Of a DNA stretch of 64,000 bases, positions 3,706 to 63,809 are shown piece by piece; within the stretch, counting starts at the first letter, position 1; the number at the start of each line of letters is the position of its first letter. Source of the stretch: a virus (Duplodnaviria > Caudoviricetes); the IMG/VR virus record IMGVR_UViG_2926558313_000004, positions 64,001 to 128,000 of that record; one strand, given 5' to 3'. Below the pieces are notes generated by a model. It searched no databases and was not told the DNA's origin. It worked only from the letters and a program-made list of their open reading frames with translations. The translations under genes and the position numbers were made by a program.

Positions 3706-3743
3706 TGTAAATCACTCCTATTATTAATGATAAAACGATTGTT

Positions 3744-3935: not shown

Positions 3936-3970
3936 ATTTTTAATTTTGTTTATTACATAAAACTAATGAT

Positions 3971-6646: not shown

Positions 6647-6839
6647 TTTATTACCTCCTATTTATAATACGTTTATAATATTATATTCACTTTATATTAT
6701 ATAGTAAGATTAAAAGAAGGTAAAGAATTATTTTAATTTTAATTTTATTGAATTTATTTATGAAGTTTCTTGGACAACCTCCCAGCCTGCTAACTGGGAA
6801 CGCTCTGCGCTTAATGCGGTTTATAGTCGCACAGACGAC

Positions 6840-6992
6840 TTATTTATTACAATTGCAATCTTTAACGTGTGAAACAAGACTATAGGCTTCTTTGCATTTT
6901 TCGCATTCTTTGTAATAGCGGCTTAAATGTTCCATTTCATGTGATGATAAGCCTTGTTTAACCCATTCTGCGCGTAGTTTTTTCATACTCAT
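6840..6992 (-). CDS. Small Cys-rich protein (50 aa, MSMKKLRAEWVKQG...CEKC...CNCNK), not in ORF track
   Basis: Read by eye; AAGGAG RBS; CxxC and CxC motifs. Confidence 0.6.
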   Translation of the reverse strand: MSMKKLRAEWVKQGLSSHEMEHLSRYYKECEKCKEAYSLVSHVKDCNCNK

Positions 6993-8549: not shown

Positions 8550-8738
8550 TTATATGAAATTCCTCCTTTTAGTTTTAGCTAGTGGAAAGATGTGGGTAGT
8601 TAGTTGATAAATAAAATTAAAATAAATAATATGGATCAATATACATTATACTATAATTTCGGATAATTGTAAATATGATTGACTTGTGAAAAATATAATA
8701 AATTAAATGAATTAGATGGGAAGTTATTAACATTAGTG

Positions 8739-8756
8739 TGTGGATAAAGTGGATAA
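8739..8756 (-). promoter_or_regulatory. Two tandem DnaA-box-like 9-mers
   Basis: TGTGGATAA (reverse complement TTATCCACA, perfect) followed by AGTGGATAA (one mismatch). Confidence 0.45.
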
Positions 8757-9565
8757 GTCGAAGGAAAGGTAAGTGTGTATATCGTATATATACAATATGA
8801 ACACTTAAAGAATTGCCGCCCTGTTATTCTGTTCGATATTATAAAACAATTGTTTCAGCGGTGGTCTATGTGGTATTGGCTGGCACGGTTTCATATTGGA
8901 TATAAGTGGAATACTAGACTAGGATATAATTGGAAATACAATAGATTAAAACTGAATATAATAATTGAATGCTTCAAAGTGGGATATAACACATATTATA
9001 TCCTTATTTTACGCTGTTTTTTGGCTATATTTTAACAAAGGAGGGGGCTAATAAACATCCAAAAAACTACCATAATTTCCATATTTTGCTAGAACACATC
9101 CACTCCTCCACTCACTCAATTTTTAAACTCGACTCCCCTCACACTCCCTACCTCACAATTTCACCTGAATCTACACTCGAACTCACATCGAAATTTCCCC
9201 TTCATCTCGCCATTTTTACTCACTCAATTTTCCTCATTTTCACTCAATTTTGTCTCTAATCACCCTACAACCCCTACTACATCAACTCTTTTCGATATTC
9301 TCACCTGTCTAATCACCTTATAACCCTTATCCCATCTATGTTTTCACCCCTTAATCCCCACTTTTTCGATCACACTTTTCTGCTCTCCCAATTATTCATT
9401 AAATTATATGTATCACCTTCAATTTATTCCTTCATAATCACTTAATTCACCACTTCCACTAAAATACTCTGACACTTTTCGATACAGCGAAAGGACATTG
9501 ATGTAATATTCTAAAAGTGTTAGCTAATCCTTTCGCTAATTTTTTAAATATGGTACTATAAATCT

Positions 9566-15455: not shown

Positions 15456-17669
15456 TTAACTCCTCCATTTGTTTAACTCTTCTTTGCTTGCTATTAATTC
15501 ATATCCCCTATTCCCTTCATGCTTTATCAGCCATCTATCTTCAATTAACTGATGCATTAATTCCTTTATTACTTCTGGTCTTGTTCTCATCTCTTCTCTT
15601 AATTTTCTCGCTCTTACTTCCCCTGTGCTAGCGATAATGCGTTTAATTTTATCCAATGGACTTTCTTCTACTACTTTCGGATTTAAATACCGATTCGATT
15701 TTACATATGAGATAATTTTTTTATATGTTTTTTCTTCCTCATTAGCATTTAAAGAAATTACCGCACTTTGAAATTGCTCAAATGGTTTGATTTGACCTTT
15801 TAACTTCATGACTCCATGCCCACTACCCAATAATTCAAATGGAACACCTGTTCCAAAAACTGTTCTGTATCCAGAAGAGGTTGATAATCTGAAACTAATC
15901 TTAGATGGAATATTGTCTTTAATTATGGTATCAACAATATTTTTATTTGGCTGCTGAGTAGCTATTATTAAATGGATTCCAGAAGCCCTTGCTTTTTGAC
16001 TTATTTTTTGAATACTGTCAACTATTTGGGGATTAGCCATCTTTAAATCTGCGAATTCATCAATTATGATTACGATATATGGAAGAGGATCATGGGGATT
16101 TTTTTGATTATAACTCTTGATGTCTTTAGCACCTCTCTTTTTAAATAATTCATATCTTTTTTCCATTTCTTGAATAACCTCATTCTCCATCTTTAACGAT
16201 GCCTCTTTTGGATCTGTAATTACTGAATTAACGTGAGGAAATTCTTTAAACTGTACTAGTTCTACTTGTTTTGGGTCAATAAGATAAAGATTAAGGCGAC
16301 TAGGTGGAACAAAAAGGAGCATTGTTAAAATAGCTTGATTTAAAAAATTGGATTTTCCTCCTCCTGTCTCACCAGCTATAAGAAGATGGGTTAAAGAAGT
16401 CAAACAACGAAATATCGGTTTACCAAATGAATCGAGTCCGACAAAGAAAGGAATTTCCAACTCTATGAGAGAATTTTGTGTCTTTTTATCAGATAATACT
16501 TCACTGAGATAAATCGCATTCTTGTTTTGTTTGGCAATTAAAAACCCAATGGTGTCAGGTTTATCACCTTGTTCAATTGACAGTGAAGATACTCCAAGTG
16601 ACACCTGAACATCTTCCTTTTTTGCAATAATTTTTGAATAAACTAAGTCTTTTGGTATGAAGTACTGACACCTAATAAAACTAAGACCATCCATTTCATG
16701 ATCTAATTTCATATCTTTTTCACTTTTAATTACACCTATTCTTTTTAATGTTTTTGGTATTTGTAGAGAAATATCTCTATATTCATTATTTATACTTTTA
16801 TTATTGTTCATTGGCAATAGATCAAATATATTGTTTGCGGCATTAACACCCTCCTTTTCTTTGTGCCTCCCTTCTTCAATTATATCTTTTGTGAGTTCTA
16901 TTGTATTGTCGTAAGCCAAGAACGAATTTATCTCATTTCTGCTCAAATATTGTTTTTCATAAAATATTGATGAACCACTTTTAATTTCTTCTATGAAAAA
17001 ACAGTTCATTCCTGACAGTTTTTTGCACGAATATTTTATTAAGTCTTTAATTAATTTTATTTGGCTATTGTTGTTGCTATCGATACCTATCATACATTCA
17101 AAACTATATTGATCATCAATTATTTTCTGCTCAATTTCTTTTATAGGACTTCTAATCTTAGATTTTGCTTTAAGGTTTAATATGTTCCAAATTGACCGAT
17201 AAAAACCACTTTCTATCGCCAACTCATTTCCGGTGATAAAGTGCTCATATTTTTCTATCTCAGTATCTCTCCATGCCCCACTCCTTTTTTTAATCATTAA
17301 TTTAATTATTATTTTATCATTGGGATCAAAAACATGGAGATTACTAAGCAAAGGAGAAATGAGTGAAAGACCATCTTCTACACCTATCGGAAAGAGCGAG
17401 TCTTCTTTCAATTTCAATCGAATCCAGTTGGCAGCATTAATATTAACTCCGTTTACAACTTCACTCAATCCTCTGTTTTTCCAGAAATAAGGAGCATGAA
17501 GGTAAGACTTGCTTTCGTGTTTATTAATTTCCCATATAACTGACACATGTGCCATTTCTAAGTAGTGATTATCAAATAGCTTTTCATGATCTTTAATCAT
17601 GAAATAACCATATGAATATTTTTCTTCGTCGTTCACATTTATAAAATTTGACAATATTTTATTTAGCAC
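15456..17669 (-). CDS. FtsK/SpoIIIE-family ATPase with long unrelated N-terminus
   Basis: HLLIAGETGGGKS, LIDPKQVEL, IIIDEFADL, QKARASGIHLIIATQQP; C-terminal wHTH-like tail. Confidence 0.93.
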   Translation of the reverse strand: MLNKILSNFINVNDEEKYSYGYFMIKDHEKLFDNHYLEMAHVSVIWEINKHESKSYLHAPYFWKNRGLSEVVNGVNINAANWIRLKLKEDSLFPIGVEDGLSLISPLLSNLHVFDPNDKIIIKLMIKKRSGAWRDTEIEKYEHFITGNELAIESGFYRSIWNILNLKAKSKIRSPIKEIEQKIIDDQYSFECMIGIDSNNNSQIKLIKDLIKYSCKKLSGMNCFFIEEIKSGSSIFYEKQYLSRNEINSFLAYDNTIELTKDIIEEGRHKEKEGVNAANNIFDLLPMNNNKSINNEYRDISLQIPKTLKRIGVIKSEKDMKLDHEMDGLSFIRCQYFIPKDLVYSKIIAKKEDVQVSLGVSSLSIEQGDKPDTIGFLIAKQNKNAIYLSEVLSDKKTQNSLIELEIPFFVGLDSFGKPIFRCLTSLTHLLIAGETGGGKSNFLNQAILTMLLFVPPSRLNLYLIDPKQVELVQFKEFPHVNSVITDPKEASLKMENEVIQEMEKRYELFKKRGAKDIKSYNQKNPHDPLPYIVIIIDEFADLKMANPQIVDSIQKISQKARASGIHLIIATQQPNKNIVDTIIKDNIPSKISFRLSTSSGYRTVFGTGVPFELLGSGHGVMKLKGQIKPFEQFQSAVISLNANEEEKTYKKIISYVKSNRYLNPKVVEESPLDKIKRIIASTGEVRARKLREEMRTRPEVIKELMHQLIEDRWLIKHEGNRGYELIASKEELNKWRS

Positions 17670-30812: not shown

Positions 30813-33749
30813 ATGAGTTCATACAATAATTTCAGTCAAAAAAGTAGACAAAAAAAAGATTTTACTTATGCAAATTTTGATCATCCTGATAGTCATGATC
30901 CAATAAAAAAAGAACAAATTAATATTGAGTCTTGGAGGAAGTTCATTTCTTATTATAGACATCATATTGATGAGTTTGCGATTGATATTTTAGGTATCAA
31001 CCTTTATCCTTTTCAAAGGTTAATATTAAGGTCTATGGCACGGTATAAAGAATCCATGTTTATTGCAAGCCGAGGGCTGGGTAGATTATGTAAGTATTAT
31101 AATTATCATAGTCTCACAATTTAAATAAAGGAGATGAGGTTTAATGAGTAGGTATACCTACAATAAAAACTTCTTTGAAAAAATTGATTGTGAGAAAAAA
31201 GCTTATTGGCTAGGCTTCCTGTACGCAGATGGATGTATTAATAGATATTATCGAAATGAAAAACTAAATGCGATGTCTTTAGAAATAGGATTAAGTGATA
31301 AAGATAGAGATCATTTACAGAAATTCTTAAGTGATATAGAATCAAATGTACCTATAAAAAGCAAAGTTGTAAAACTTAACGGAGAAAAATATAATTCTAG
31401 TAAAGTTGTAGTTTGCAACACTAAAATGTGCAGAGACTTAATTAAACTGGGATGCACTCCTCAAAAAAGTTTAACTTTAACATTTCCGAATGAAAATATC
31501 CTTCCTAAACAATACATTAGAGATTTCATTAGAGGGTATTTTGATGGAGATGGCTGTATATTTTTTGGAGAATATGATAGTTTGAAATCTTTAAAAATTA
31601 TAATTGTTGGTACTTTTAATATGGTAAAAGCTATAGAATATCACTTTAAAGAAAATCAAATAAACATTAATCCTATGATCAAACAAAAAGGCAAGGCATA
31701 TCAAATGGTTATCTCTGGATTCGATAATATTAATGAAATACATACATATTTTTATGAAAACTCAACTGTTTATTTAAATAGAAAACATGAGAAATTTACC
31801 GAGTCATTAAATTATATAAATCAAAATAGGAAAAGTACATCTGGTAAAACAGGTGTATATTTCGACAAAAGAAGTAATCGTTGGGTTGCTTCTTTTTGTT
31901 TTGACGGTAAAAGAAAACAATTAGGGAGTTTCATAAATAAAGAAGATGCAATTAAAGCTAGAAAAGAAGCCGAATCATTATAAATTTGATAACTATATTA
32001 TTTATTTGCCCACTTAAGTAGTAATACTTAGGGAAAATAATGCGGAATTAAGCGTGGAGTCCTCCAGTAATTAGGGTAACACGAACCGAAGGCTAGATGT
32101 AAAAGTTTAGTCAGGGGCAGAGCATAGGAGATGAAACTGTATTTATAGAATATAATTCTCCCAAGAGTCCGCATCATCCCACTAAACTTAGGTTTAAGGA
32201 TGAAAATGTATGCCGACCTTGCACGATGGAAAAGTGTAAGAAGTAGAGGATAAAAAGCCTTTACGATAACAATGTGAAATCATATTTAAGTGCAGTCTTT
32301 TTTATTTGTCAAGCAATTTTATATAAAGGTATTAAACTTGGGATTGCTTCTGGAAAGGGGCAGCAAGCGAGAAATGTAATCATACAGAAAATTAAAGGTG
32401 AATTACATTCGAACCCCAATGTAGCTAGAGAGATATCTGATATAAAAACAGGTGCGAATGACTGTGTTGTTCATTTTAAAAATGGTTCTGAAATAAGAGC
32501 TATTGTACTTGGTCATGATGGAGAGTCTGCTAGATCATGGAGATTCCATCAGTTGTTGGCTGATGAAGCTAGGCTGATAAAAGATTCTATCATGGAAGAA
32601 ATATTAGTTCCAATGACAAAAACAAAAAGACAGACAATGATTGATTTATCAATGAAATTTGATAAAGATGAGCTTCCTGTTGAGAAAGGTAAATTAATTT
32701 ATATTAGTTCAGCTTACCTAAAAAATTGCGACCTGTATGATCGTTTTATGAATCATTACACTAAAATGTCTGAAGGAAATAATGATTATTTCGTTTGCAC
32801 TCTTCCTTACACTGTTGGGGTTAATGCCGGAATTTATTATGAAGATGACATAATGAAAGAAAAAAATAAACCTTCGATGACTTCTGATAAATTTGCTTAT
32901 GAGTATGAAGCTGTTTTTGTTGGAAATTCAAATGAAAGCTTTTACCCATATGACTTAACTGAGGAATGCAGAGTCTTAGAAAAAAGTGAAGTTAAACAAC
33001 CAAAAAAATCTACAGTTCAATATGTAATTTCACATGATGTCGCCTTATCAAATGCAAAAGATAGCGACAATGCCTGTACCACTGTAATTAAAATAAAAGA
33101 AAAGCCAAGTGGTGCATACAGCAAGGAAGTAGTTTATATCAAAGTACATAAAGGAATGTCGTTACCAAATCAAGCAAAATATCTTAGGGAAATGCTGTTA
33201 AGATTCCCTAACACAATTAAGTTAGTTCTAGATGTTCGTGGTAATGGCGAAGCCCTCCCTTCTCTTTTGGACGAAACTTGGGAATATACAAATGAAAAAG
33301 GCGAAGTGATCGAATGTCCACCTCTTGCCCCCGATGATGATGAAGAACGAATGAGTCTACAAAATGCTGTTCCAATTATTAGGCGTATCGCTGCCACAAA
33401 TCAACTTAACAATACTATGCATACATATATGAAGAAAAGTTTCGAAGACGGAAGTCTAAAGTTATTAGCTAATTCGGCAGTAGTTGATTCTGAGTTTAAA
33501 TCTGAAGCAATGACAGAAGAACAGTATGCCTCTTTTGTAAATACTGATATTCTTATTAATGAGTTAGGCAATACAAAACAAGAGTCTTCTGAACACGGGA
33601 ATATTCTTTATGGTCGCATTAGTAAATCAACCAAGCGTGACCGTGTTACAAGTTTAGGTTATGGTTTAGTTTATATTAATGAATTAGAGCAAGAAAATAA
33701 AATGAGTAAAAATAACGACGAGTATGATTTTTCGTTTTTCTACAATTAA
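30813..33749 (+). CDS. yonF: Terminase large subunit, spliced: join(30813..31082,32277..33749), 580 aa
   Basis: Splicing restores Walker A ASRGLG|KSY; LYPFQ adenine motif, LLADEA Walker B, YISSA motif III, SHDVA and KRDRVTS nuclease motifs. Confidence 0.93.
31083..32276 (+). ncRNA. Group I intron (1194 nt) with endonuclease ORF in L1
   Basis: Exon ends in U, intron ends in G; P1 GGGU|AGAU pairs with AUUUGCCC after the ORF; P3 AUGCGGA/UCCGCAU; P7 GCAUA/UAUGC. Confidence 0.92.
31144..31983 (+). CDS. Intron-encoded LAGLIDADG homing endonuclease with C-terminal AP2-like domain
   Basis: AYWLGFLYADG and FIRGYFDGDG; C-term SGKTGVYFDKRSNRWVA...LGSF...DAIKARKEAE. Confidence 0.9.
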   Translation: MSRYTYNKNFFEKIDCEKKAYWLGFLYADGCINRYYRNEKLNAMSLEIGLSDKDRDHLQKFLSDIESNVPIKSKVVKLNGEKYNSSKVVVCNTKMCRDLIKLGCTPQKSLTLTFPNENILPKQYIRDFIRGYFDGDGCIFFGEYDSLKSLKIIIVGTFNMVKAIEYHFKENQININPMIKQKGKAYQMVISGFDNINEIHTYFYENSTVYLNRKHEKFTESLNYINQNRKSTSGKTGVYFDKRSNRWVASFCFDGKRKQLGSFINKEDAIKARKEAESL

Positions 33750-43838: not shown

Positions 43839-44864
43839 GTGAATTTATTGGGAAAGATCAAACGAATAAAATATTTTACTCCTGAAAAGAAATCCCTCAT
43901 TTCAGAAGAAAATAGGAAGTTATATGAGAAATATTTAAAAAGCTCGATTATCAAAAATAAAGATGTGAAAGAAACTACCTATAAGGTTTATCAAAATTAC
44001 ATGGATCACTTTCTAGTTTATTTAGCTGAAGAATGGGATAATATCGGCTTATATAGCGAAGAATTCATGGAAGAAGCAGTAGATATTATGGAAGGATTTA
44101 TTGGTTTTTGCCAAGAAACTCTATTTAATAATAAGAAAGTAATAAACACTAAACTTAGTACTGTTTCAAGTTTTTATTTATGGAGTCTTAAAAGAGGATT
44201 GATTGATAGACACCCATTTGATAAGAAGCTTGAAAGAATGAAGGGTGCAAACGACGAAAAAATCAGAGATTCATATTATCTAACAGAAGAGCAAGTTCTA
44301 CAAATCCAAGATGGCTTATTGAATGATAAACGATATGATTTTCAGGATAGGCTTATTTGGAATATAGCTCTAGACTCCGCTAATCGGGTTGGCGCTCTAT
44401 CTCGCTTAACTATCTCTTCCTTAGATCTAGAGAATATGGTATTTGAAAATATAAGAGAAAAACGAGGCAAAATCGTAGAAGTTGCATTTGAAGAGGAAAC
44501 TAAGCTATTAATTGAAGAATGGCTTGAAATGAGAAAAGAGATGGATAATTTAGAAATTGATTCATTCTTTTTAACTAAATATAAGGGCAATTATAAACCA
44601 ATGGATTATGGAACTATTCAAAATCGAGTTAAAAAGATAGGTACTATTATTGGAATTGAAGATTTTTATGTTCATACTATTCGCAAAACAAAGTTGAACT
44701 TGCTATATGAACAGACTGGGAATATCGACATGGTTGCTGAATGGGCAAACCATGAATCTATTGAAACTAGTAAGAAACATTACATAAAACCAAAATCTAA
44801 GGCTCAGCTTAGACGTGAGATGAGAGAATTAATTAAGAAAAATAGAGATGAAAAGAAGAAATAA
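43839..44864 (+). CDS. Tyrosine recombinase/integrase (YomM position)
   Basis: ANRVGAL (R), EKRGK (K), HTIRK (HxxR), ANH, KHY (Y); hairpin terminator at 44884-44903. Confidence 0.9.
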   Translation: MNLLGKIKRIKYFTPEKKSLISEENRKLYEKYLKSSIIKNKDVKETTYKVYQNYMDHFLVYLAEEWDNIGLYSEEFMEEAVDIMEGFIGFCQETLFNNKKVINTKLSTVSSFYLWSLKRGLIDRHPFDKKLERMKGANDEKIRDSYYLTEEQVLQIQDGLLNDKRYDFQDRLIWNIALDSANRVGALSRLTISSLDLENMVFENIREKRGKIVEVAFEEETKLLIEEWLEMRKEMDNLEIDSFFLTKYKGNYKPMDYGTIQNRVKKIGTIIGIEDFYVHTIRKTKLNLLYEQTGNIDMVAEWANHESIETSKKHYIKPKSKAQLRREMRELIKKNRDEKKK

Positions 44865-49323: not shown

Positions 49324-50800
49324 GCATGGGATGATAGTGAGGTCGGTCAGGGATGGCTTTTGCCATCTTAATTGACCGAAAAATCACTACACAAATTGTT
49401 TTTCATGCAAAAAATTGTTATATAATAGACATATAGCAAAAAAGGAAGTGACGAACAATGGTCATGTATTTAACTCAAAGCAATCAAATCAGAGGTCTTT
49501 CTAAGGAGCAATTTAAACAACTGAAAGAAATGTGTCACTATGCAAAAAACCTTTACAATGTAGGCTTGTATAATGTGCGACAACATTACTTTACAGAAAA
49601 AAGCTTTTTAAGCTATGAATCCAACTATCACGTTTCAAAAACCAATGAAAATTATGGCATGCTTCAAGCGGGTGTTTCACAGCAAATTTTAAAAGTAGTA
49701 GATCGCTCTTTTAAAAGCTTTTTTAATCTAATTAAGAAAGCGAAAAAAGATGAATACCGCTTTCAAGATGTGAAATTACCGAGATATTTAAAGAAAGATG
49801 GTCTGTTTCCACTCATTTTTTCTACAAATGCAATTAGTATTAAAGATGGTTTTTTCCGTGTAGCTGTTTCAAATGCGTACAAAAAGTTGAATCCAAATTT
49901 CCAACAAATCCTGATACCTTTCCCTTCAAGACTAGAGGGTAAAAAGATAAAAGAAGTACGAATCGTCCCAAGAAACAACGGACAATTCTTTTCTATTCAA
50001 TACGTCTATGAGCAACCGTATGAAGTGACAGAGCTAGATCGTAGCAAAGCACTAGCTATTGACATCGGATTAGACAATCTGGCTTCTTGCGTTGATACAG
50101 ATGGGGCATCCTTTTTAATGGATGGAAAGAAAATCAAATCAATTAACCGTCTATACAACAAAGAGAAAGCACGTTTACAATCCATTGCCATGAAACAGGG
50201 TATGAAATACACGAAGCAGATTGACGCTATAACATTGAAGCGCAATCGTCAAATCAGTGATTCCATAAAAAAAAGCGCCAGACACATCATTAACTATTGC
50301 ATAGAAAACAAAATCGGCAATCTAGTTGTGGGCTACAATAAAGATTTTAAGAGAAATATCAATATTGGCAAAAAGAATAATCAGCAGTTTGTACAAATTC
50401 CATTTGGAAATTTGAGAGAGCAACTTTTTAATCTTTGTGAGCGATATGGCATTGAATACAAAGAGCAAGAAGAAGCCTATACAAGCAAAGCGTCTTTTTT
50501 TGACAATGACCTCATTCCGAATTGGAATCCAGAAGAAAAAGAAAAGCACATTTTTAGCGGAAAACGTATAAAACGTGGTCTTTACCGCACGAAAACCGGA
50601 TATGAGCTAAATGCTGATATTAATGGAGCTTTAAATATTTTACGCAAAAGTAACTTGGTGGATTGTGAAATCCTACAAGCTAGAGGGCGTTTGGCTCGCC
50701 CATTAAGAATAAGAGTCATTTGACCAAACTTCTTTTAAAGAATCCCACTCGTTTCACCGCAAGGTGTAGAGCTTGCCCCTTTAGGGGTGGGAGAAGTCAA
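49290..50800 (+). mobile_element. IS200/IS605-family TnpB-only element (IS1341-like)
   Basis: Inserted 3' of TTAT (49286-49289), ends in TCAA, subterminal hairpins CCCATCGCCTTTAGGCATGGG and GCCCCTTTAGGGGT, no target duplication; excision restores the host reading frame. Confidence 0.9.
49458..50723 (+). CDS. tnpB: TnpB RNA-guided nuclease
   Basis: AKNLYN, RuvC-I LAIDIGLDN, QEEAYTSK, RuvC-III NADINGALNI. Confidence 0.95.
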   Translation: MVMYLTQSNQIRGLSKEQFKQLKEMCHYAKNLYNVGLYNVRQHYFTEKSFLSYESNYHVSKTNENYGMLQAGVSQQILKVVDRSFKSFFNLIKKAKKDEYRFQDVKLPRYLKKDGLFPLIFSTNAISIKDGFFRVAVSNAYKKLNPNFQQILIPFPSRLEGKKIKEVRIVPRNNGQFFSIQYVYEQPYEVTELDRSKALAIDIGLDNLASCVDTDGASFLMDGKKIKSINRLYNKEKARLQSIAMKQGMKYTKQIDAITLKRNRQISDSIKKSARHIINYCIENKIGNLVVGYNKDFKRNINIGKKNNQQFVQIPFGNLREQLFNLCERYGIEYKEQEEAYTSKASFFDNDLIPNWNPEEKEKHIFSGKRIKRGLYRTKTGYELNADINGALNILRKSNLVDCEILQARGRLARPLRIRVI

Positions 50801-50930
50801 GAATGTTGTTGGTGCTGCTATGAAGGCTCATACTCGTGAAGTATTGAGGATGAAATAGAGCGTATAATATACTAGTAAAAACCTCCCATTTTGTCGTATA
50901 ATGGTAGAATGACGGATGGGAGGTGAAGAA

Positions 50931-51689
50931 ATGAATATATTAAGTATCTTACATACTTTTGAGAACTTAACTAATAAAGAAAAAGAGCGACTTTTAAAAG
51001 AATTTAAGGTGAAGTCGTTTGTTGAACTCCACTTGAAAATTAATGAATCATTGAAAAAAACTCTAAATGTAATTGAAAATCAAGATTTAATTAATGCATC
51101 AAAATTCGTTAGGTGGAATGATGATTGGAATGAATATGGAATTTACGGAAGTAAAAGAGAAGTCTTGAAAGAAGTAGCTTCCAAAACCTATAGTAGAGGT
51201 AGAATTTTATTCATTGACTTCGGTCATCACAACATAGGTAGAGAGTTTTCGCATAATCATGCAGGAGTCGTACTAAAAGACTTTGGTTCAGTTATAGAAG
51301 TATTGCCTATAACATCGGACAAAGGTAAGAAATTTTCCAGCGATATTGAAAAAGCGATTATTCGAGTAAAGAAAGCCGATTATAATCAGTTTGATAATAA
51401 TTCAATTTTGTTAACACATCAAATTCAATCAATCTCTAAGAATAGAATTATCAAAGACTTACACAAAACAATAGCTAAGACAGAATTAATGGTTCAGATT
51501 GAAGAAAGACTATCCTTCACTTATGCTCCTTACTATTCCAAAAAACAAAATGATGAAATAAACTCATTATCAGAAAAAGTTTTGCAATTAGAAGAAGAAA
51601 TTCGTATTATGAGTGAATTAACTAAGGGAATAACTGAAGTAACTACTAGTGAAAAGTTAATCGCTTCTCATAAAGAAATAGTTGACTAA
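50931..51689 (+). CDS. PemK/MazF-fold endoribonuclease-like protein with N- and C-terminal extensions
   Basis: RGRILFIDFG...NIGREF...HAGVVL...VLPITS, QIQSISKNRI; GGGAGGTG RBS; TATAAT upstream. Confidence 0.8.
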   Translation: MNILSILHTFENLTNKEKERLLKEFKVKSFVELHLKINESLKKTLNVIENQDLINASKFVRWNDDWNEYGIYGSKREVLKEVASKTYSRGRILFIDFGHHNIGREFSHNHAGVVLKDFGSVIEVLPITSDKGKKFSSDIEKAIIRVKKADYNQFDNNSILLTHQIQSISKNRIIKDLHKTIAKTELMVQIEERLSFTYAPYYSKKQNDEINSLSEKVLQLEEEIRIMSELTKGITEVTTSEKLIASHKEIVD

Positions 51690-51932: not shown

Positions 51933-54900
51933 ATGAATGAAGATTTGAAGTTGCTGATTACAGCAGGGATTAATACTGGTACATCTGTAAGGGAAATCAA
52001 TAATTCAATTAAACAACTGCAGAAAGTTGTTAATCAAAAGAAATTAAATTTAAATATTAAAGTTAATCAAGATACTTTAAAGCAAATTGAAATGTTTAAT
52101 ACACGGATGAAGGCGCTGGGAGATCAAGCTTTAAATACACGGAAAGTTATAGAAGAAGTCACCTCCCCCACTGGCGCAAAAGTAACAAGAACTCACTGGG
52201 AAGGTGTAGGTGGGGCATTTTCTGAGATCGAATCAAAAGCCAAGCAGACTCAGAAATCAATGGCTCAAACATCGGAAGTAGCAAAAGAGACTAAAAAAGA
52301 ATTTGATTCAATAGCAACATCTACTCAAAAAAATGAGAAATCAGCTCAAAAATTTAACTCTGAAATTCAAAAAACAGAGAATTTAGTAAAGCGTACATCA
52401 CGTTTGAATTCTGAAGGTAAAAAGGTTTGGGATGAGACATATCAAAGCGCTTCAAAGGCACGGCAGGAAGTTGTTAAATATAATGAACATGGTGAACAAA
52501 CCAATAAAGTTTACACTGAAAATTATAATAATTTAAGAAAACTTTCTCAGGAACGAGCTAAGTTGAGACGTGAATTGGTTGCAATGCAATCAGATGGTCG
52601 TATTTCTCAATCTCAGTTTAATGATTTATCTAGTAGATTAAATACAAGCACTAGCCAAGTTGCTTTGAATAAATATAAAGAACAGATGAAGTCATTAACT
52701 ACAGTTACAAGCCAAGCAACAGCTAATCAAGCTAAATTAAATCAAGAGCAAGGTAAATTTAGAATTAATTTAAATCAATTACATAATCAAGGAAAAATTA
52801 CTGAAGATCAATTAAGACAATTCAGTAATGCGGTTAATACTACAAAGTCAGTCGGACAAGTTAAAAGGCTATCGCAAGAAATAGATAAGCTAAGAGTGAA
52901 GGCTTCCAGTGTGTCTTCTACTCCACTAACTCAATTTGATCTAGATTTAGCAAGAAGGCAATTTGATAATAAAGCAAGTGAGGCAATTAGACAATACCCA
53001 TCTATTGATAAACGGGCAATAGCTGACCTGCAAAATCAGTTTAAATCACTAGAAGTAGGAACAGATAACGTAAGAAATAAAATAAGAGATTATAACATGT
53101 CTCTAACGGAAACTGTCAGTCAGACTAAACGTGTGACTGCTAATACTAATACAATGGCTGGGGCATTCCAGAATGCAATGGTGGAATATCGCCGTCTAGC
53201 TTAGTAATAGGCTAGATTATGACAGGGGAAAATCGGTGAAGGCTAAGTCGTAAGATATGCTAATACCGAGGTAAATATTAAATGTAAAAGTTTAATATCA
53301 CCGTAACGCATAGGTCTTGAACCTGTGTTTTTATCCACAGAATATAATAGACCCACGAGTCTCCTGTACCCTATCGATTATTCGAGGGTAAAAATGTATG
53401 CTATCTCATCATGAATCAACATGATTCAAAGGAGGAAACTCCGAGGGAGTAAAGATAAAAAGCTTTACTGTGAAAAATGGAAGTTCCCTATCTGGATGGC
53501 AGCCAGTACCGCTTTCTTTGGTACGATCAGAAGTTTCCAAAATATGTTAACACAAATTATCGAGATCGACAGTCAAATGACCTCATTAATGAGGGTATCC
53601 AATGGAGAAATCGATAGAAATCATATTCTTCAGCAAAGTGTTGATTTGGCAACGCGATTGGGTAATACAATAAGCCAAATTAACGCTGGGCTTGAAACGT
53701 TCGCCAGACAAGGCTTTAGAGATGATGGGCTAATTGCCATGACGGAAGCATCTACCTTATTTTCCAATATTTCGGAAATGGATGTTGACCAAGCGGCAAG
53801 TGGTCTAACTGCTATAGCTATGGGCATGAAGGAAATTAGCGATACAGATATCATGGTTGCGGTTGATGCCATAAATGAAGTCGATAATAATTTTGCGATT
53901 TGAAGAAGTCGCCTATATTGGTAACAATATAGTGATAACTCAGTGAACCCTATTGCTCAGGGGTGTACATTATTGTGCTAACGGTGGAAGTCTAAGTTAT
54001 TTTAATACTTAATAAAATAATATGATAATACCGTGCCAAGCTTGAAAGGTAACTTTCTTGAAGGTGTAACGACTAATTCTTAGGAGGGAAAGATGAGCTG
54101 CCCTTCGAAGCGCTGAGAATCCTTTTTAAAGGATTATGATATAGTCTAACCCCTATTAAATATGTCGAAAGACAGGGTATTATATGTTCTTCTCAAAATA
54201 TTGTTCAATCTATCCAAAAGTCAGTAGGTGCTGCAGAGACATTTGGTGTTTCACTGCATGAGCTAATTGGTTATACCACTGCTATTGGAGAAACTACGAG
54301 GGAATCTGGAAATATCATCGGTGAAAAGTTGCTGATGTAAAATTCTCACTTATTGACTTGGACGCCCTAACGTTTAGACGAGGGTAACAGGGGCGAAGTT
54401 TAAATACACGCTGAACGACTGAGTGTGAGAACGCTATTAAGCATAGCGAAGCGACAGTCTGAACTTCTATGGAGACATAGAGAGTAAGGTTGAAGCGCCT
54501 TACCGCCAAATATAGTATTTGGTCAGTAACCTTTAAACTAGGTGAAAGTAACAGCTTGAACAGTCTTAAAACAATATTTTCCAGAATCACCACAATGGAT
54601 GGTTCAATTGATGCATTAAACTCAGTTGGTATAGCTGTACATAATATGGAGGGCGATGTTCGTCCAGTAGCAAATATATTAGATGAATTAGGCAGTAAAT
54701 GGAGTTCCTTGAACTCTCAACAACAGCAATCTATTGCGCTTCAAATTGCCGGCAGATATCAGCTCTCGCGCTTCTTGGTTTTGATGAATAACCATTCTAG
54801 AGCCATCGAAGCTACTAACACAGCCATGAATTCCGCAGGATCTGGAATGAGGGAGAATGAACAATACTTACAATCATTAGAAGCCCGCATAAACAGATTT

Positions 54901-57900
54901 AAAAATTCGTGGACTGAAATGGCTATTACTGTCGGAGACGCTTTTCTGTCTGATGGTATTGTAGCATTTTCAGAAACTATGGCTACAATTTTATCTTCTA
55001 GTTCAGATATCATTAGTGTAATTGGTTTTCTGCCTCCAGCTCTTGGTGCGGCAACAGTGGCAACTGTAGCACTTAATTCTTCAATGAGAACCAATATAAC
55101 GACCGCCGCAGCTCAAGCGGGAACGCTAACTACACTTAGAGGTATAATTTCAGGTGTAGGTGCAAGTGCAACAGCAACTGGTGCAGCTTTAGCAACTATG
55201 GGACGTTTCATGATTGGAGCCTTACCGCCTGTTGCTCTGATAATGCTTGGTAGCTTTGCATTAGAAAAGCTCTTCTCAGCTTACATGAAGAATAGAGAAG
55301 AAGTAAGGCAGCTAGAGCAAGAAATGAATAAGTCCACCGAGGCAATTAGAAGTCAAGGTGACACAGTTGATGAACTTGCAAATAGGTTCCAAGAACTTGA
55401 AAAATTAAAGCAAACAACTGGTTTAACAAATGAACAGGAAGAGGAATTTGTAAGTCTACAGAATCAATTAGCAGAAATACTACCTACTGTAGCTAGTGGA
55501 TTAGATGAAAAAGGGAACAAGCTGATTGAAAGCTCTGATTTACTACAACAGGAAATTGACCTATTAAAAGAAAAAATTGAACTGGAGAAAGAGCAGAATA
55601 GACTGAATTTAGATTCAAACATTAATAGTCTGCAATTAGATATCGATAAAGAAATTAATAATATTGATAAATTGAAAAAGCATGTAATTTTTTACGAAGA
55701 AGAAATTTCTAGATTGCAAAATGACAATACTGCCTCTGCTTTCGACATTGAATGGAATCAACTGCAATTATTTGCTACAAAACAAAAAATCATTGAAGCA
55801 GAGCAGAAAATTCTAAATCTTAATAAGCAAATAGGTCAAACAGTTGCCGATACTGTTGAAGATGCTTCTAACTTAAGTAATCTGGATTTTGACTGGATAT
55901 CTGAGATCAAAAAGAATGGATTCGATGGCATTGATTTAAATAATGATGAATTAATTAAATTCACTAAAACCCTCTCCTCTATTCGCAAATCTTTCGGTGA
56001 AGCATTTTCAACCGATCAACTAAAAACTTTTTCTCAAGAGCAGTTGCAAATCCTCTCCCACATGTCAGTTAATCTTCAAAATGGGACAAAAGATTTTAGT
56101 GATTGGACAGATGCTTTAAAAAATGCAGGGTTCTCATCTGATGATGCAGAATCAGCTATTAGTGCGTTAAATAGAGCTGTTGAGGAAACTGCTCATGTAC
56201 AAGAAATGGTTGATCTTGGTGTATTTCGTGATTTAGAAGGAACAATTCCTGTAAAAACTACGAAAGAATACAATGAAGTTATAGAAGAAGGTATTCCTCT
56301 TTATATTGAAGTCGATGGGGTTATGCAGGAATTAACTGACACTTTAGACTCCCAATCCGAATCCATCGATCTCACTGAAAAATCCTTCGAAGAACTCACT
56401 CAATACATAGCCGAAAAAACTAACCCTACCCTATCCGATTACATGGCACTGGCATCAGCCACATCAGATGAACTCGACATCCTCTCCTCTGCTCACAAGG
56501 AATTAATCACCGACGGTAAGCTTTCTCAATCAAGTCTAGATAAGCTAATCGAAGCTTACCCAGACTTCATCAAAGTAACTGGCTTATCGACAGATAAGAT
56601 GCTTGAATTTATAACAGCTTCTAAGCAGCAACGTATGCAAGCAATTCGTGATCAAAAAGAAATGACTAGAGCAACCATCGAAGAAACTGAGAAGCGAATT
56701 GCAGAGATGCAAAAAGAAATCGACGCAATGGGAGCGCGGACTCTAGCTCAAATCAGAAGTTATAACGCTCAAATTACTAGTCTAAGAAATGCATTGTCTA
56801 ACACGACTGACCGAAGCGAACAAGAAAGACTCTCTAATGAAATCACTCGCATTAGTGGAGTCATTTACGATTTAAATACTGCCTTCCAAGAGCAGCACAC
56901 TATTCTAAGTGACTTAAAAAAAGAAAATGAGGAAGCAACTAATTCATACACTTACCTCGACTATGCAGTAAATGATTTAGCTGAATCTTATCATAAGAAT
57001 ACTGAAGCAAACGACAAAAATAATAAATCTCAAAAAGACTCAATTTATTTAGCTAATAAGCGAGAAGAAGCAATCAAGGCTCTTAATCGTGAACTAACCA
57101 GACAGCAAAACGCTCAAAATAACTTACTAAAGGGATCTCAAAGATGGTTAAAAGCTAAGCAGGAAGAAATCAACCTCACTCAAAAACTAAGAGAAGAATT
57201 AGCTAATCAGAGGGCGGAATTAGAAAAACTACAAAATGCAGGAATCGTTCAACAATCAGGAGTAGTAAATTCTTCTTCGATGAATGGTGGATCGTCTTCA
57301 TCGTCTTATAGCGGTCAATACGCTACTTATATTAATAAAGCCGCTGCACAATACGGAATTGATCCAAATCTAATTGCGGCTGTCATTCAAACAGAATCTA
57401 ATTTCAATTCAAATGCCCGTTCCTCTGCCGGAGCACAGGGATTAATGCAATTAATGCCTGCTACCGCTAGAGAACTTGGAGTTACCAACATAAATGATCC
57501 TGAACAAAACATTATGGCAGGAACTAAATACCTCGCACAGCAACTTGAAAGATTTAGCGGAGATATCGAAAAAGCATTAGCTGCTTACAATGCGGGTCCC
57601 GGCAATGTTCAGAAATGGGTTAATAATGGTCAATGGGGTAATATACCGTTTAAGGAAACTCGAAATTACATTCCAAAAGTCTTAAATGAATACGGTAAAT
57701 TTAATAATAATTCATCCTCTACAAGCGGAGTCTCTAATGATGTAGCCTCATATTATCTTAATAATTTCCGTCAAACTTCTCAGTTTGGTATGCGTAATGG
57801 ACGTATGCACAATGGAATTGATCTCGCCCCAATGGAAAGAGGTAAACAAGGCGATCCAATTAAGGCTCTTATGGGTGGAGTTGTCAAATCAGTTGGTTAT

Positions 57901-60717
57901 CAAAAAGATGGAGCTGGCTATTATATTACGTTAGAGCATATGGATGGTTCAGTAACTAAATATTTCCACCTTATGGAAATGCCTAGTTTAAAAGTTGGTC
58001 AACAAGTACAAGGTGGTCAGCAAATAGGTAAATTAGGAAACACTGGACGCTCTTCAGGTGCTCATCTTCATCTTGAATATTTGCAAAATGGTAAAGCCGT
58101 CAACCCTTTACCCGTTCTTCAGCAAATAGCACAAGGCGGAGGCGATTTTGCCCAATATCAACAAGGTCTTGCTAATCAAGCCCAAACAATTGAAGATTTA
58201 AAAGTTCAAGAACATCAGCTATATTTGCAGCAGCAAAAAATTCAAGAAGATTATTTAAATGGTTTAATTGAAAATCACAATCGTTCAATAGAAAGATTAG
58301 AGCGTTCAATTCAAGAACAGCAGAACATTATCGACCAAAATCCAGAAGGCTCAGCAGCCCGCAACCAAGCATTAAATCAAATTAACTACCTTCAAAGCTT
58401 AATTGATAAGGAATTAAATGAAATCCAGTATAAGGCTGGACAATACTCAAACAGAACAGATATTTCTGAACAAGGTAGATATGATTTTGCCGTACTTCGT
58501 GATGAAACTCGACTACGCAGACAAGGTATAACCATAGAGCAAGCTGAACGTAATGCCACACGCACTGAAGAAAAAGTTACTCAGCTACAAGGATTAATTG
58601 AACAGCAAAACCGATCCCTTCAACACGTTGAAAATGAATTAAACAAATTAGATCCCTACTCTCCTGAATATCGTGAAATGTTAGATGATCGACTTAAACA
58701 CGAAAATGAAGCTCTTCGTCTTATGAATCGAATTAAAGAAGAATATACTAAAGCGATTGAATCAGGAAAATTAACTGAAGCTTCAATTAATCAATTTAAA
58801 CAAGCGTTGTCGGATACGAACTTAGAAATCGAAGAACAATCTCGTTTAATCAAAGAAATAGATGAACTTTTTGCAGAGAGTGTCATTGGTGAATATAATC
58901 GAGAATTAGATAAACTCTCTTACCAATATGACTTATCAACAAAGACAATGGCTTTATACAAAGAAGGCTCAAAAGATTACATGCTTGAACTGAGCAAGCA
59001 AGCGAGTATAACAACGGAGCAAATCAATAAAGAAAAAGAATTACAACAAACCCTTCTTGAACTTTTAAGAACTAAAGATTTATCTATACAGAAGCAAGAA
59101 GAATATAATGAAATGATAAGAACTTCAGTTATTAGACAAAAAGAATTTCAACTCACTCTTCTAAACACAAGAGAATATATTCAAAATCAAATTGCAGATC
59201 AATTAACTAAACAGCAAACTCAATATTTAGATACTTTGAAAAATAAGTATGATGAACTAAATAAAACTCTAGAATCATTAATTAAACCAGAGGATATATT
59301 TAATGCTAATGAATTTAAGCACAGCATCAATGAGATTATTTACGAACTAGAGCGAATTGATGGTCAATTTAAGAAAAACGCCATGTTTGTAGAATCTGCA
59401 TCTGGAGTATATAAAAATCTCGATCAAACGAGAAAATCAATTCTTGATATGGCAAACGCCATTGAAAAAATGGCTAATTCCACATCTAATAATCAGTCTG
59501 AATTAGAGAAAATGATTCGCTCGCAATCTCAATATGCCAATCAAATTAAAGATGAAATTGAACTTATCGATCAGAGAATTCGTCAAAGAGAGCTTGAACA
59601 GAAGAAAATTGAAGATTCTCTTCAAAATCAAATAGATCTCAGACAAAAAGAAATAGAGCAATTAGATGAACAATATCAAAAAGAAGATAGACTCAAACGA
59701 TTACGTGATCTAGAAGAAGAAATGGATAAAGTGTATAACGATAGACGTTTTGAGTATATTGACGCAGAAGGAAATGTCATCCTTACCTATGACAGAGGTC
59801 GCTACAATGAATTAGTCAAACAACGTGACGAGATGCTTGAGCAATACGAGCGTGAAGATATTAAAAAAGCCCGTCAAGATGAAATTAATGAACTCCAAGA
59901 AAAGCTAAACAAAACGAGAGAAATTCACAGGGCAGAAATAAATGACATCAATCTTCAACGCAATGCTTTAAACACTTTATACAATGCTTTAGTTGCAAAC
60001 ACTAGAGATAAAATGGCTCAGCTTAAATCATTACAAGACCAACATCTCGAAGACACAAGAAAGAATTGGGATGACATTATTGAATCCGTCAGAGAAGGAA
60101 CAATGACCTATTCTGAATTAATGAATAGCTGGTATGGATCTGCATTAGAAGAGATGAAGGACTTTGGGTTGGAAGTGGCTGAAGAAGTCAATAAAATAAA
60201 GGATTTATACAATCAATTATTTGAAGTTCAAGTTCCGGAGCCTCCAAAACAAAAGAGTGGTAGTAGCGGAAGTAGCAGTTCTAAAACTGGAAGTACCATC
60301 GGAAGAGTTATAGGTGGTTTTGTAGGAGGAGGAGCAGGTGGCGCTGTTGGTGGAGCAATCGGCGGCGCTATTGGCTCAATCAGAGATAAAATCACTAAAA
60401 AACATGATGGCGGCATTGTCGAGGGTGGAAAGCCAAATAAAGTCACACAATTGATGAATACCCTCATGAATGCTAATGCAGATGAGCAAGCAATTTTAGC
60501 ATTGAAAAATGAATTATTCTCTCCTGAAGAAAATCTTACCAAATACGCTCTTCCTAACATGAGAAATCTAATGAGTAAGGTTACACCTAATTTAAGTTTA
60601 CAACCACAAACAACTGAAACTCATTACCATATTCATAAAGACATCTTAGTAAAAGCGGATAATCCATACGATATGCTTCAAGGTATTCGTACTTTTGTAA
60701 ATACAAATAAAGGTTAA
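51933..60717 (+). CDS. yomI: Tape measure protein with SLT and M23 domains, spliced: join(51933..53182,53480..53899,54187..54322,54559..60717), 2654 aa
   Basis: Splicing yields NAMV|KFPIWM, DNNFAI|SSQ, TRESGNIIG|NSLKTIFSRI; SLT motifs QTESNF, GLMQLMP, AAYNAG; M23 HNGID and HLH. Confidence 0.92.
53183..53479 (+). ncRNA. Group I intron 1 of tape measure gene (297 nt, no ORF)
   Basis: P1 AUGGU|G..CGCCGU with U.G at splice site, terminal G, P7 AACGCAUA/UAUGC, P10 GGAAU/GUUCC. Confidence 0.9.
53900..54186 (+). ncRNA. Group I intron 2 of tape measure gene (287 nt, no ORF)
   Basis: P1 GCGAU|UU..AAGUCGC, R AACGACUA, S GAUAUAGUC, P3 CUCAGU/GCUGAG, terminal G. Confidence 0.92.
54323..54558 (+). ncRNA. 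Group I intron 3 of tape measure gene (236 nt, no ORF)
   Basis: P1 CAUCGGU|GA..UUGCUGAUG, R AACGACUG, S GACAGUC, P3 UUCUCAC/GUGAGAA, terminal G. Confidence 0.9.
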
Positions 60718-61832: not shown

Positions 61833-63809
61833 ATGGTTCCTTATAATTTTAGAGGTAACTATAATTCCTCTTATGACTATGAAAGATATGATGTAGTTTT
61901 ATATAGACCAGACGAAGATTCTTCACGGAGAATCTTTTTTTGTTTGAATCAGAACAGCTCAAGTGATCCTCAAACTCCAAATATCAATGCAGATACAGAC
62001 TATTGGGCAATACTCAACGATGGCTCTCAATTCCCTAATAGTGTAGATACATTTAATTTACAGTCAACAATAACGAATAGTGATAAACCAAAAGTTCAGA
62101 GGTATTTTGAATTATCTGCTATGACAAGTAGGACTCCTGAACTAGATGATGAACTAGATCAGTTAACAGGAGAAATTAGAAATAAGCTACTTTTACCACA
62201 GGATATCAATAAAATTCAAGAAGCTGTTCAAAACTTGCAGATGTTTTTATTGAGTGAAATTGTGGGTTATTTGAAGGAAAAACAAGATGAATGGAATGCA
62301 ACACTTAATGAATTTAGGGATCGTGGAGCTTATGTAAATTCTACTCAATATTACAAATGGAATACTGTTCAATATATGGATCAAACATATATGGCTAAAC
62401 AAGATACACTTGGAAATTTACCAACAAACTCTACTTATTGGCAATTGATTGCTAAAAAGGGGTTACAAGGTGATTCGGGTGAAAAAGGCGATGATGGTAT
62501 TGATTTGGTATTTAAAGGGGCTTATGACCCTTCCTATATTTATGAAACTAATCATGCCGTTGAGTATTTGGGTTCTGTTTATAAATGTACCTCACAATCA
62601 ATTGGCAATGTTCCTACAGATGAGAACTTTTGGGAATTATTCGTATCTAAAGGAGCAAGTCATCGTCTAATTGTGCGTACTAATTCGGTCACTCTTGATC
62701 AGACGGAATCAGTCGTCTACATACAAATTCCTGAATTTAACGCTTCAACAGATACTTTACTTGTTTCTCAAAATACAACCGTATTAACCAGAGGCGTACA
62801 TTACACTCTAAATGGCAACGTATATATTCAAAAAACAAATGGTACATGGGATGAAGGTACAAGATTTACATTTTGGGTATTTAAAAATGCTTATGAAACA
62901 GTTATCTACTCCGATGGAACTTTAATTGAACATGGCTCGATTGGTAATGAACAGTTGAATAGCGATATAAAAATTGGTTCATTACAAGAATTAGAAACCG
63001 AATATAAAGATGACATAGTCGGCGCAATTAATGAAGTAAAAGTAAATCTAGATGAAACTAATGATAATGTCTCTAGTTTGAACCAAGATTTAGAAGATCA
63101 TATTAATACATTTGCTTCAACTACTCAGCGAGGTCATGTTTTACTAAGTGACTCGACTACTAGTGATTCATCTGAAACAGGTGCAACATCTAAAGCAGTA
63201 AAATCCGCTATGGATCGTGCCGATGCAGCTTTTACGTCAGCCAGTAATGGGAAAAATCAAATTGCTACCGCCATTACTGGAAAAGGTGTACCAGCGAGTG
63301 GTAGCGATACATTTACTCAACTAGCAAATAAAATTGAACAAATAGCCACAGAATATGCCAAGAGTAGAGTCCTATTAGATAATGTAAATCAACTTCCTAT
63401 AGTTAATGAATACTGGGAAATGGGACTATATCACAGAGTAGGCTCGATATCAATGAGTGATACAAGTTTTTCCATAGCTATTCACAATGATTACGTTCCA
63501 GTTAGTACTGTTGTTAGTAAAGAAAGAATAGATTTAAATGGAATAAATTCAATCTTTATCTACATGAATACAGATAGCACTATAATGGGTAGAGCTGGAA
63601 TGATTTCTATTTCGGATAACAAGTCTACTGGAGTAAATGACTTTATCAGGCAATGGAGCGTTGAAGAATATACTGGAAGTATGCAACTTATGATATTGGA
63701 TGTTTCAGATATAAATGGTAGTCATTATATTAAATTCGGCTATGAAGATCCACCTAGCAGTAGTGGATCTTATTGGAGAATGCGTATTAATGGAGTTTAT
63801 CTAGTTTGA
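61833..63809 (+). CDS. Tail fibre/receptor-binding protein
   Basis: Repeated G.Y...Y...V.Y...P....YW carbohydrate-binding-like modules, collagen-like GLQGDSGEKGDDG, fibre repeat ASTTQRGHVLLSD...ATSKAVK. Confidence 0.82.
   Translation: MVPYNFRGNYNSSYDYERYDVVLYRPDEDSSRRIFFCLNQNSSSDPQTPNINADTDYWAILNDGSQFPNSVDTFNLQSTITNSDKPKVQRYFELSAMTSRTPELDDELDQLTGEIRNKLLLPQDINKIQEAVQNLQMFLLSEIVGYLKEKQDEWNATLNEFRDRGAYVNSTQYYKWNTVQYMDQTYMAKQDTLGNLPTNSTYWQLIAKKGLQGDSGEKGDDGIDLVFKGAYDPSYIYETNHAVEYLGSVYKCTSQSIGNVPTDENFWELFVSKGASHRLIVRTNSVTLDQTESVVYIQIPEFNASTDTLLVSQNTTVLTRGVHYTLNGNVYIQKTNGTWDEGTRFTFWVFKNAYETVIYSDGTLIEHGSIGNEQLNSDIKIGSLQELETEYKDDIVGAINEVKVNLDETNDNVSSLNQDLEDHINTFASTTQRGHVLLSDSTTSDSSETGATSKAVKSAMDRADAAFTSASNGKNQIATAITGKGVPASGSDTFTQLANKIEQIATEYAKSRVLLDNVNQLPIVNEYWEMGLYHRVGSISMSDTSFSIAIHNDYVPVSTVVSKERIDLNGINSIFIYMNTDSTIMGRAGMISISDNKSTGVNDFIRQWSVEEYTGSMQLMILDVSDINGSHYIKFGYEDPPSSSGSYWRMRINGVYLV

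Follow-up and report, generated by a model that had tools for sequence, protein, structure and literature searches.

How can a phage gene whose coding sequence is spread over several reading frames specify a single protein? The question is raised by a stretch of 64,000 nucleotides (nt) of viral DNA (positions 64,001 to 128,000 of IMG/VR record IMGVR_UViG_2926558313_000004; hereafter the window, meaning this whole stretch). Around its tail tape measure gene, the plus-strand list of open reading frames (ORFs) contains three frames whose translations are pieces of one tape measure protein: one of 452 amino acids (aa) that ends at 53204, one of 160 aa spanning 53421-53903, and one of 2075 aa that starts at 54490. 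The original prediction, made from the letters of the DNA, had proposed that the gene is interrupted by three group I introns lacking ORFs and that joining the exons restores one 2654-aa frame. The analysis described here supports this view: we put at about 0.9 the probability that the tape measure gene of a prophage of the SPbeta/GVE3 type contains three small group I introns that lack nucleases and stem from three unrelated lineages.

The four exons listed in Table 1 were joined by script and yielded a sequence of 7965 nt, or 2654 codons, with one stop, at the end only. The resulting protein was compared with its counterparts from two Bacillus phages, vB_BcoS-136 and FADO, and from Mammaliicoccus phage phi36, which served as references since their genes are uninterrupted. 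The comparisons (E 1e-93 with vB_BcoS-136 and 1e-91 with FADO) have 0 gaps at all three junctions, and residues are conserved right up to every junction. Both junction peptides foreseen in the original prediction, NAMVKFPIWM and ESGNIIGNSLK, occur as written in the joined translation, as does a third, NNFAISSQNIV; counterparts in the homologues, again gapless, are AMVKFPVWM in phi36, NNYAISTQQL in vB_BcoS-136 and ESGSIIGNSLKTIY in FADO. In translated searches (tblastn), consecutive stretches of each uninterrupted protein matched 53481-53900, then 54185-54322 or 54185-54331, then the sequence from 54514 or 54559 onward, in three different frames. By exon joining and by these matches, all coordinates of the prediction are correct to the base.

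The third exon deserves separate mention. While the exon 1 frame stays open to 53204, no plus-strand ORF of 40 aa or more covers the 136 nt of exon 3, which the prediction had described as hidden. Translated searches recovered it independently, residues 784-829 of vB_BcoS-136 matching 54185-54322 and residues 752-800 of FADO matching 54185-54331. The exons also differ in phase: exon 2 (420 nt) could be skipped in frame, whereas skipping of exon 3 would break the frame.

Table 1. Exons and introns proposed for the tape measure gene, interrupted relatives, the second interrupted gene and neighbouring features
Feature	Coordinates	Strand	Remarks
Exon 1	51933..53182	+	1250 nt; ATG at 51933; ends after second base of codon V417
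Intron 1, group I, without ORF	53183..53479	+	297 nt
Exon 2	53480..53899	+	420 nt, equal to 140 codons; introns on either side follow second base of a codon
Intron 2, group I, without ORF	53900..54186	+	287 nt
Exon 3, hidden micro-exon	54187..54322	+	136 nt; a single base finishing codon I557, followed by the 45 codons S558-G602
Intron 3, group I, without ORF	54323..54558	+	236 nt
Exon 4	54559..60717	+	6159 nt with stop; bears SLT transglycosylase and M23 peptidase domains
Large terminase exons (SPbeta YonF type)	30813-31082 and 32277-33749	+	split inside Walker A motif GLG/KS
Terminase insert	31083..32276	+	1194 nt; begins after T, ends in G; endonuclease ORF 31144-31983
FtsK/SpoIIIE protein	15456-17669	-	
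Second M23 peptidase	20284-20796	-	
Tubulin/FtsZ-like protein	21000-22109	-	
Tyrosine integrase	43839-44864	+	inside tail gene module
TnpB-type transposase (OrfB_IS605 and Cas12f-like TNB)	49458-50723	+	between tail module and tape measure gene
PemK/MazF-like protein	50916-51689	+	between tail module and tape measure gene
Tail fibre family protein	61833-63809		downstream of tape measure gene
Four group I introns of G013 (locus L011, G013:C1:1619000-1632000)	9184-9444, 8825-9129, 8462-8765, 7789-8103	-	tape measure gene
Introns of L031 (Oceanobacillus sp. FSL H7-0719, NZ_CP150301.1)	2465-2681, 2763-2950, 3709-3964		98.2, 88.8 and 61.8 bits on Rfam

Coordinates refer to the window except in the last two rows, where they refer to the locus named. 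In Table 1 and in the text, a slash between two residues or residue numbers marks an insertion point between them, and sites in related genes are given in the numbering of the joined window protein.

From its sequence, the joined product is a phage tail tape measure protein of the SPbeta/GVE3 type with lytic domains. The transglycosylase and peptidase domains of exon 4 are strong Pfam matches (SLT, E 1e-34; Peptidase_M23, E 6e-24); the TMP_3 match in the exon 1 piece is weak (E 4e-7). When the exons are scanned separately, the PhageMin_Tail profile (PF10145) is split between exon 2 (profile positions 2-90, 31.8 bits) and exon 4 (positions 136-201, 21.2 bits), each partial match staying below the 33.2-bit cut-off. 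The 45 residues of exon 3 would be the 45 profile positions (91-135) absent in between. Among phage records, tblastn with exon 2 gave 119 matches, of which all 119 cover at least 80% of the query; those listed are mostly annotated as tape measure. In Geobacillus virus E3, residues 1-327 of gp42 match 51933-53024, in exon 1, and residues 37-1067 of gp43 match 54559-57738, in exon 4. The position of the gene, between the tail module and the gene of a tail fibre family protein downstream, agrees with the assignment.

What, then, are the inserts? As the original prediction had stated, the last exon base before each of them is T and the final intron base is G in all three (53479, 54186 and 54558). 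Local minimum-free-energy folds place P1 hairpins of 6-9 bp at the three 5' splice sites, with the expected splice-site pairs U53182.G53191, U53899.G53908 and U54322.G54331. When a 3.7-kb segment was searched with the Rfam group I model (RF00028, Intron_gpI), intron 2 scored 36.3 bits (E 7e-7), intron 3 24.4 bits (E 0.0028) and intron 1 21.7 bits (E 0.018); the alignments span the whole model (positions 1-253) and put P3-P9 in each intron. When all 64 kb of the window were searched, with E allowed up to 1, Intron_gpI matches came from exactly these three inserts, all below the curated cut-off, which is more than chance would give. Compensatory changes, scored with RNAalifold in alignments of three or four sequences, affect 29 of 68 predicted pairs in the lineage of intron 2 (four sequences; P7 included), 22 of 62 in that of intron 3 (three sequences; P3 included) and 29 of 60 in that of intron 1 (three sequences; P3 included). 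Each intron contains an early in-frame stop, at intron nt 20-22 in intron 1, at nt 2-4 (TGA) in intron 2 and at nt 16-18 (TAA) in intron 3. The three are mutually dissimilar, their best matches to one another extending over 14-23 nt (E 0.006-0.1), and we assign them to three unrelated lineages.

ORF and Pfam scans found no nuclease ORF in any of the three introns, in agreement with the prediction. One ORF of at least 40 aa wholly spans an intron: it encodes 92 aa on the reverse strand (54315-54593, over intron 3) and was taken as fortuitous, its best Pfam match having an E of 0.056 and no nuclease family being matched. Inteins, frameshifts, group II introns and insertion sequence (IS) elements were rejected as causes of the breaks because the inserts are non-coding, display group I features and can be removed exactly. 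We infer that the gene is spliced and hence gives rise to a functional full-length protein. In the late-operon transcript, each intron would fold, bind free guanosine and excise itself by two transesterifications; the ligated mRNA would then be translated into a tape measure protein complete with its transglycosylase and M23 peptidase domains. The stops situated 2-22 nt into each intron would keep ribosomes off the ribozyme core.

Each intron has relatives of its own. Intron 1 shares 79% identity over 106 nt with an intron in the tape measure gene of Staphylococcus phage 6ec and 70% identity over 150 nt with Clostridium phage phiCD211. Intron 2 is 74% identical to an intron of Metabacillus arenae (locus L015) and 69% identical to the intron of Geobacillus virus E3. 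Members of its lineage (69-75% identical) reside at four different sites, D546/A547 in L015, D552/N553 in E3, within I557 here and within I590 in genome G013, and the 5' exons at all four end in GAT. Intron 3 is 73-75% identical to the introns that two Paenibacillus loci, L019 and L033, have at this position. A same-site intron in L016 that carries a LAGLIDADG ORF matches it with 79% identity at either end, and its final 35-40 nt are shared by inserts at that site in L018 and L020.

Interruption is common among related tape measure genes. A homologue of exon 2 is encoded in three of 48 other genomes of the host's family (G006, G009 and G013). The gene of G006 has two introns, one within M423 (80.8 bits on Rfam) and the other between G577 and V578 (22.5 bits); that of G009 shows no interruption in the compared stretch. 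G013 has four introns, of 261, 305, 304 and 315 nt, at D552/N553, 570/571, within I590 and at 709/710, with Rfam scores of 62.2, 64.5, 35.9 and 43.1 bits. Its internal exons include ones of 54 and 59 nt, and its joined frame comprises 2658 codons, as against an unspliced reading that ends at codon 437. A scan of the genome collection with a five-sequence alignment identified 21 loci, in which interruption was judged by tblastn with the joined core. The core was broken in ten of them (L013, which is G006, and L015, L016, L018, L019, L020, L030, L031, L032 and L033) and gave a single continuous match in another ten (L017 and L021-L029); L014, a 2.3-kb contig, was too short to judge. Closer reading of the sequences revealed at least three introns each in L019 and L031, and four in L033.

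Rfam was searched on eight of these loci (67 kb, E up to 0.1) and found introns in L031 and L032 only (81.3 bits for the L032 intron), none being reported in L015, L016, L018, L019, L020 or L030; the introns in these six silent loci were placed where tblastn matches break and by their similarity in BLAST. Within the gene family, the relatives that exceed 50 bits (in G006, G013, L031 and L032) score between 61.8 and 98.2. Altogether, of 27 related genes for which the core region was available, 13 carry introns, from one to four apiece. This count takes in the window gene, four genes from phages, those of G006, G013 and G009, and whichever loci do not duplicate these, a sample picked by similarity to the window gene and thus not random. 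Ten insertion sites, placed by hand, are occupied: V417, M423, 546/547, 552/553, I557, 570/571, 577/578, I590, 602/603 and 709/710, those named by a single residue lying within a codon. More candidate sites near 433, 489 and 662-668 are suggested by alignment ends alone.

A second gene of the same prophage is also interrupted. In the window, phrog_15503 positions 17-98 match an ORF at 30813-31124 and positions 98-244 match the start of an ORF at 32274-33749; once joined, these pieces of the large terminase form a 580-aa protein, 58.8% identical to CST168 of phage c-st and gapless at the GLG/KS junction. The ORF inside the insert specifies an endonuclease of 279 aa (phrog_4645, E 5e-52; Pfam LAGLIDADG_3, 27.8 bits). 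Rfam gave no intron match on it. The insert is probably a fourth group I intron, an assignment based on its T and G ends, on a weak resemblance between its 3' part and intron 1 (seen also with the second G006 intron), and on a reading by eye in which P1, with the ORF in its loop, is followed by P2, P3, P7 and P8 ordered as in intron 1.

Several observations weigh against the view that the tape measure gene is spliced. All three introns fall short of the curated Rfam gathering cut-off of 50 bits, so that no intron is reported in the window at curated thresholds. E-values in the whole-window search are 1.3e-5 for intron 2, as compared with 0.048 for intron 3 and 0.3 for intron 1, and in a genome-wide search intron 2 alone passes E 0.01. 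The model equally missed the relative of intron 2 in L015 and that of intron 3 in L019 at E up to 0.1. The covariation samples, at three or four sequences per lineage, are small. No RNA run matched among the sequencing runs searched for the tape measure region; one DNA run gave two short contigs, identical to 53713-54085 and without joints. Finally, with a TnpB-type transposase gene and toxin-antitoxin-like genes just upstream, the prophage may carry other insertions. One could thus envisage that the inserts, either all three or just the weakly scoring introns 1 and 3, are non-splicing relics and the gene a pseudogene in a decaying prophage, a possibility to which the low scores of these two introns, the deviation of intron 1's P7 from the model consensus (as read by eye in the alignment), the nearby transposase and the lack of a matching RNA run would all lend themselves. 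We nevertheless consider it very improbable. A relic would hardly be expected to retain four exons forming an open 2654-codon frame with conserved residues up to each junction, intact splice-site U.G pairs and terminal G residues, and compensatory helix changes in each lineage. As to the low scores, they fit the incompleteness of the Rfam group I model for phage introns reported in the text of a 2025 study (PMC11878797).

If the introns are genuine, how did they arrive without nucleases of their own? The original prediction held that their spread needs a trans-acting enzyme. Homing in trans is indeed one option, but the necessity does not stand, in view of the nuclease-bearing relatives. At 602/603, the site of intron 3, L016, L018 and L020 have inserts of 0.9-1.4 kb, of which the one in L016 encodes a LAGLIDADG_2 protein (E 3e-27) and the other two contain ORFs with weak matches of the Vsr/DUF559 type; inserts at 577/578 in L030, L019 and L033 likewise carry ORFs with Vsr/DUF559-type matches, and the 6ec relative of intron 1 contains an HNH ORF. 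Since a same-site relative of intron 3 has a LAGLIDADG ORF and a relative of intron 1 an HNH ORF, it is at least as likely that introns 1-3 have lost the nuclease gene from once-mobile, endonuclease-bearing forms. Such forms would most likely be their ancestors, and the introns would now be passed on along with the prophage or when phages residing in one host recombine. Homing by an endonuclease supplied in trans, whether free-standing or belonging to a related intron in a phage infecting the same cell, seems possible but doubtful. It has a precedent in phage T4, where the free-standing nuclease MobE homes a defunct intron (PMC2790892), and the nuclease-bearing introns at 602/603 and 577/578 speak in its favour; an enzyme of this kind could convert a co-resident intron-less allele, dragging neighbouring introns along. 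Yet no free-standing homing nuclease was found beside the gene, whose upstream neighbours encode a PemK-like protein and a TnpB-type transposase, nor was any intron-less allele of the window gene found. The sole homing-type nuclease found in the window is that of the terminase insert, at a distance of 20 kb, and its target is presumably the terminase gene. A different route is suggested by the lineage of intron 2, whose GAT-ending sites hint that the internal guide sequence directs the choice of site, be it by reverse splicing or because a fitting P1 is selected, the lineage having moved among nearby (C)GAU sites. Three of its four members have GUCGC or GUCG as the guide (pairings read by eye from the sequences), and related introns at two different tape measure sites are described in the Bacillus cereus group (PMC2504315). 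We regard this route as unlikely, however: the sample is four sequences, so short a target is common, the related introns at different sites in PMC2504315 had an altered rather than a retained P1, and no reverse-splicing product is observable from sequence.

These elements can be assembled into a broader picture, which as a whole we think rather improbable. The core of the gene (about residues 415-710) would act as a landing pad for at least three intron lineages in prophages of Bacillales and Clostridia, with up to four introns per gene and exons down to 54-59 nt. The four GAT-ending sites would be the footprint of a reverse-splicing-like spread and not of endonuclease homing. Skipping of exon 2, which keeps the frame, could result in a second, shorter tape measure protein.

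Turning to known systems, one comparable case is orf142 of Staphylococcus phage Twort, a late gene whose three group I introns and exon skipping were reportedly described by Landthaler and Shub in 1999. Both are late structural genes of Bacillota phages with three introns of the self-splicing type; unlike the gene described here, orf142 specifies a tail tube protein (PMC11878797), and its splicing was demonstrated by experiment, whereas that of the window gene is predicted from sequence. The same text describes, for Bastillevirinae, genes with two or three group I introns, introns in the terminase and exon skipping, the genes concerned being those for DNA polymerase, ribonucleotide reductase and terminase-type proteins; the term "tape measure" occurs 0 times in it.

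The original prediction had presented introns in such a gene as a rarity, a framing that does not hold. In 2008, Tourasse and Kolsto described group I introns that occupy three sites in tape measure genes carried by prophages of the Bacillus cereus group (isolates: five of B. cereus, a single one of B. weihenstephanensis and eleven of B. anthracis; PMC2504315). These introns (TMP-IVS1, IVS2, IVS3a and IVS3b) belong to classes IA1 and IA2, have no complete nuclease gene and number at most two per gene (IVS1 and IVS3a in E33L); the tape measure gene of Lactobacillus phage JCL1032 is mentioned as intron-bearing as well, and the authors raised the question of how immobile introns get to different phages. 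The resemblance to our case is considerable. In both, small nuclease-less introns lie in a prophage tape measure gene of Bacillus or its relatives, several sites are used per gene family with more than one intron per gene, related introns occur at differing sites and differing introns at one site, and in-frame stops come early (within the first 27 nt in the 2008 introns). The window gene differs in belonging to another tape measure family and in having three introns against a maximum of two. Homology between the two sets was considered and rejected, since pBWB404 shows no detectable similarity in the protein and no meaningful one in the introns: tblastn of the window protein core against the pBWB404 gene region gave no match at E up to 10, the window introns yielded nothing beyond 13-16-nt matches in the pBWB404 tape measure region, and pBWB404 is absent among the 15 records listed in a tblastn search of plasmids. 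The two cases are therefore parallel and not homologous.

Closer to the window gene is that of Geobacillus virus E3 (KP144388), the closest phage homologue, at 47% identity over exon 2 and 58% over the stretch that follows. Its tape measure gene was deposited as two coding sequences, gp42 and gp43, with no intron annotated, which bears out the remark of the prediction that standard annotation would misread such a gene. Unlike the window gene it has one intron (locus L001, 6004-6307; 48.7 bits on Rfam), and the idea that this occupies the site of intron 2 was discarded as sequence reading puts it 14 nt upstream, at D552/N553. The intron 1 relatives of phiCD211 and 6ec also lie inside split tape measure genes, although the proteins are distant ones, the sites are other sites, and the 6ec intron has its HNH ORF. 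The RefSeq record of phiCD211 (NC_029048) annotates a misc_RNA "Intron_gpI" in the tape measure gene, so that this intron was already on record in GenBank; a second, unannotated intron appears to lie beside it (locus L034, about 2481-2755), around a 33-nt exon. A literature search that left supplementary files aside, and in which sources were seen in part, returned no report of introns in tape measure genes of the SPbeta/GVE3 type, of E3 or of phiCD211.

The window belongs to contig 5 of a bacterial genome (Bacillales) that comprises 4.5 Mb in 66 contigs, and the element is for this reason a prophage or plasmid-prophage; it is a large one, of the SPbeta/GVE3 type. Neighbouring genes encode a portal, a protein resembling head proteases, virion proteins and, within the tail module, a tyrosine integrase. 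In vB_BcoS-136, phi36 and FADO, a tyrosine integrase gene lies directly upstream of the tape measure gene, and in Geobacillus virus E3, too, PemK-like genes are found just upstream. The tubulin-like gene is reminiscent of plasmid-prophages such as c-st, and by this analogy the element may not be integrated. Two further structured RNAs were found in the window, a Pistol ribozyme on the minus strand at 6773-6840 (58.2 bits; cut-off 34.5) and a Skipping-rope RNA on the plus strand at 26333-26445 (60.5 bits; cut-off 36.7), the latter preceding a PIN-PhoH gene (26542-27840) by about 100 nt.

In conclusion, the kind of arrangement found here is one already known, introns in prophage tape measure genes having been described since 2008 (PMC2504315), and the finding leaves established views unchanged. 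What is new is the presence of three introns in a single gene of the SPbeta/GVE3 type, the interruption of nearly half of the related genes compared, the existence of same-site relatives with homing endonucleases, and the endonuclease-bearing insert in the terminase gene of the same prophage. Without recognition of the introns, annotation would break the gene into three or four fragments or list it as a pseudogene, with loss of its 45-residue exon, the E3 record being an example. As the curated Rfam cut-off misses all three introns, the gene family makes a useful test set for better models of phage introns. The sequences suggest that introns have repeatedly invaded the conserved core of the gene, which is very long. 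Because nuclease-bearing and nuclease-less forms share sites, the family offers a natural series in which to follow the gain and loss of homing endonucleases and the arrival of nuclease-less introns at new sites, and its frequent invasion at multiple sites, with and without nucleases, represents a wider pattern worth a proper survey.

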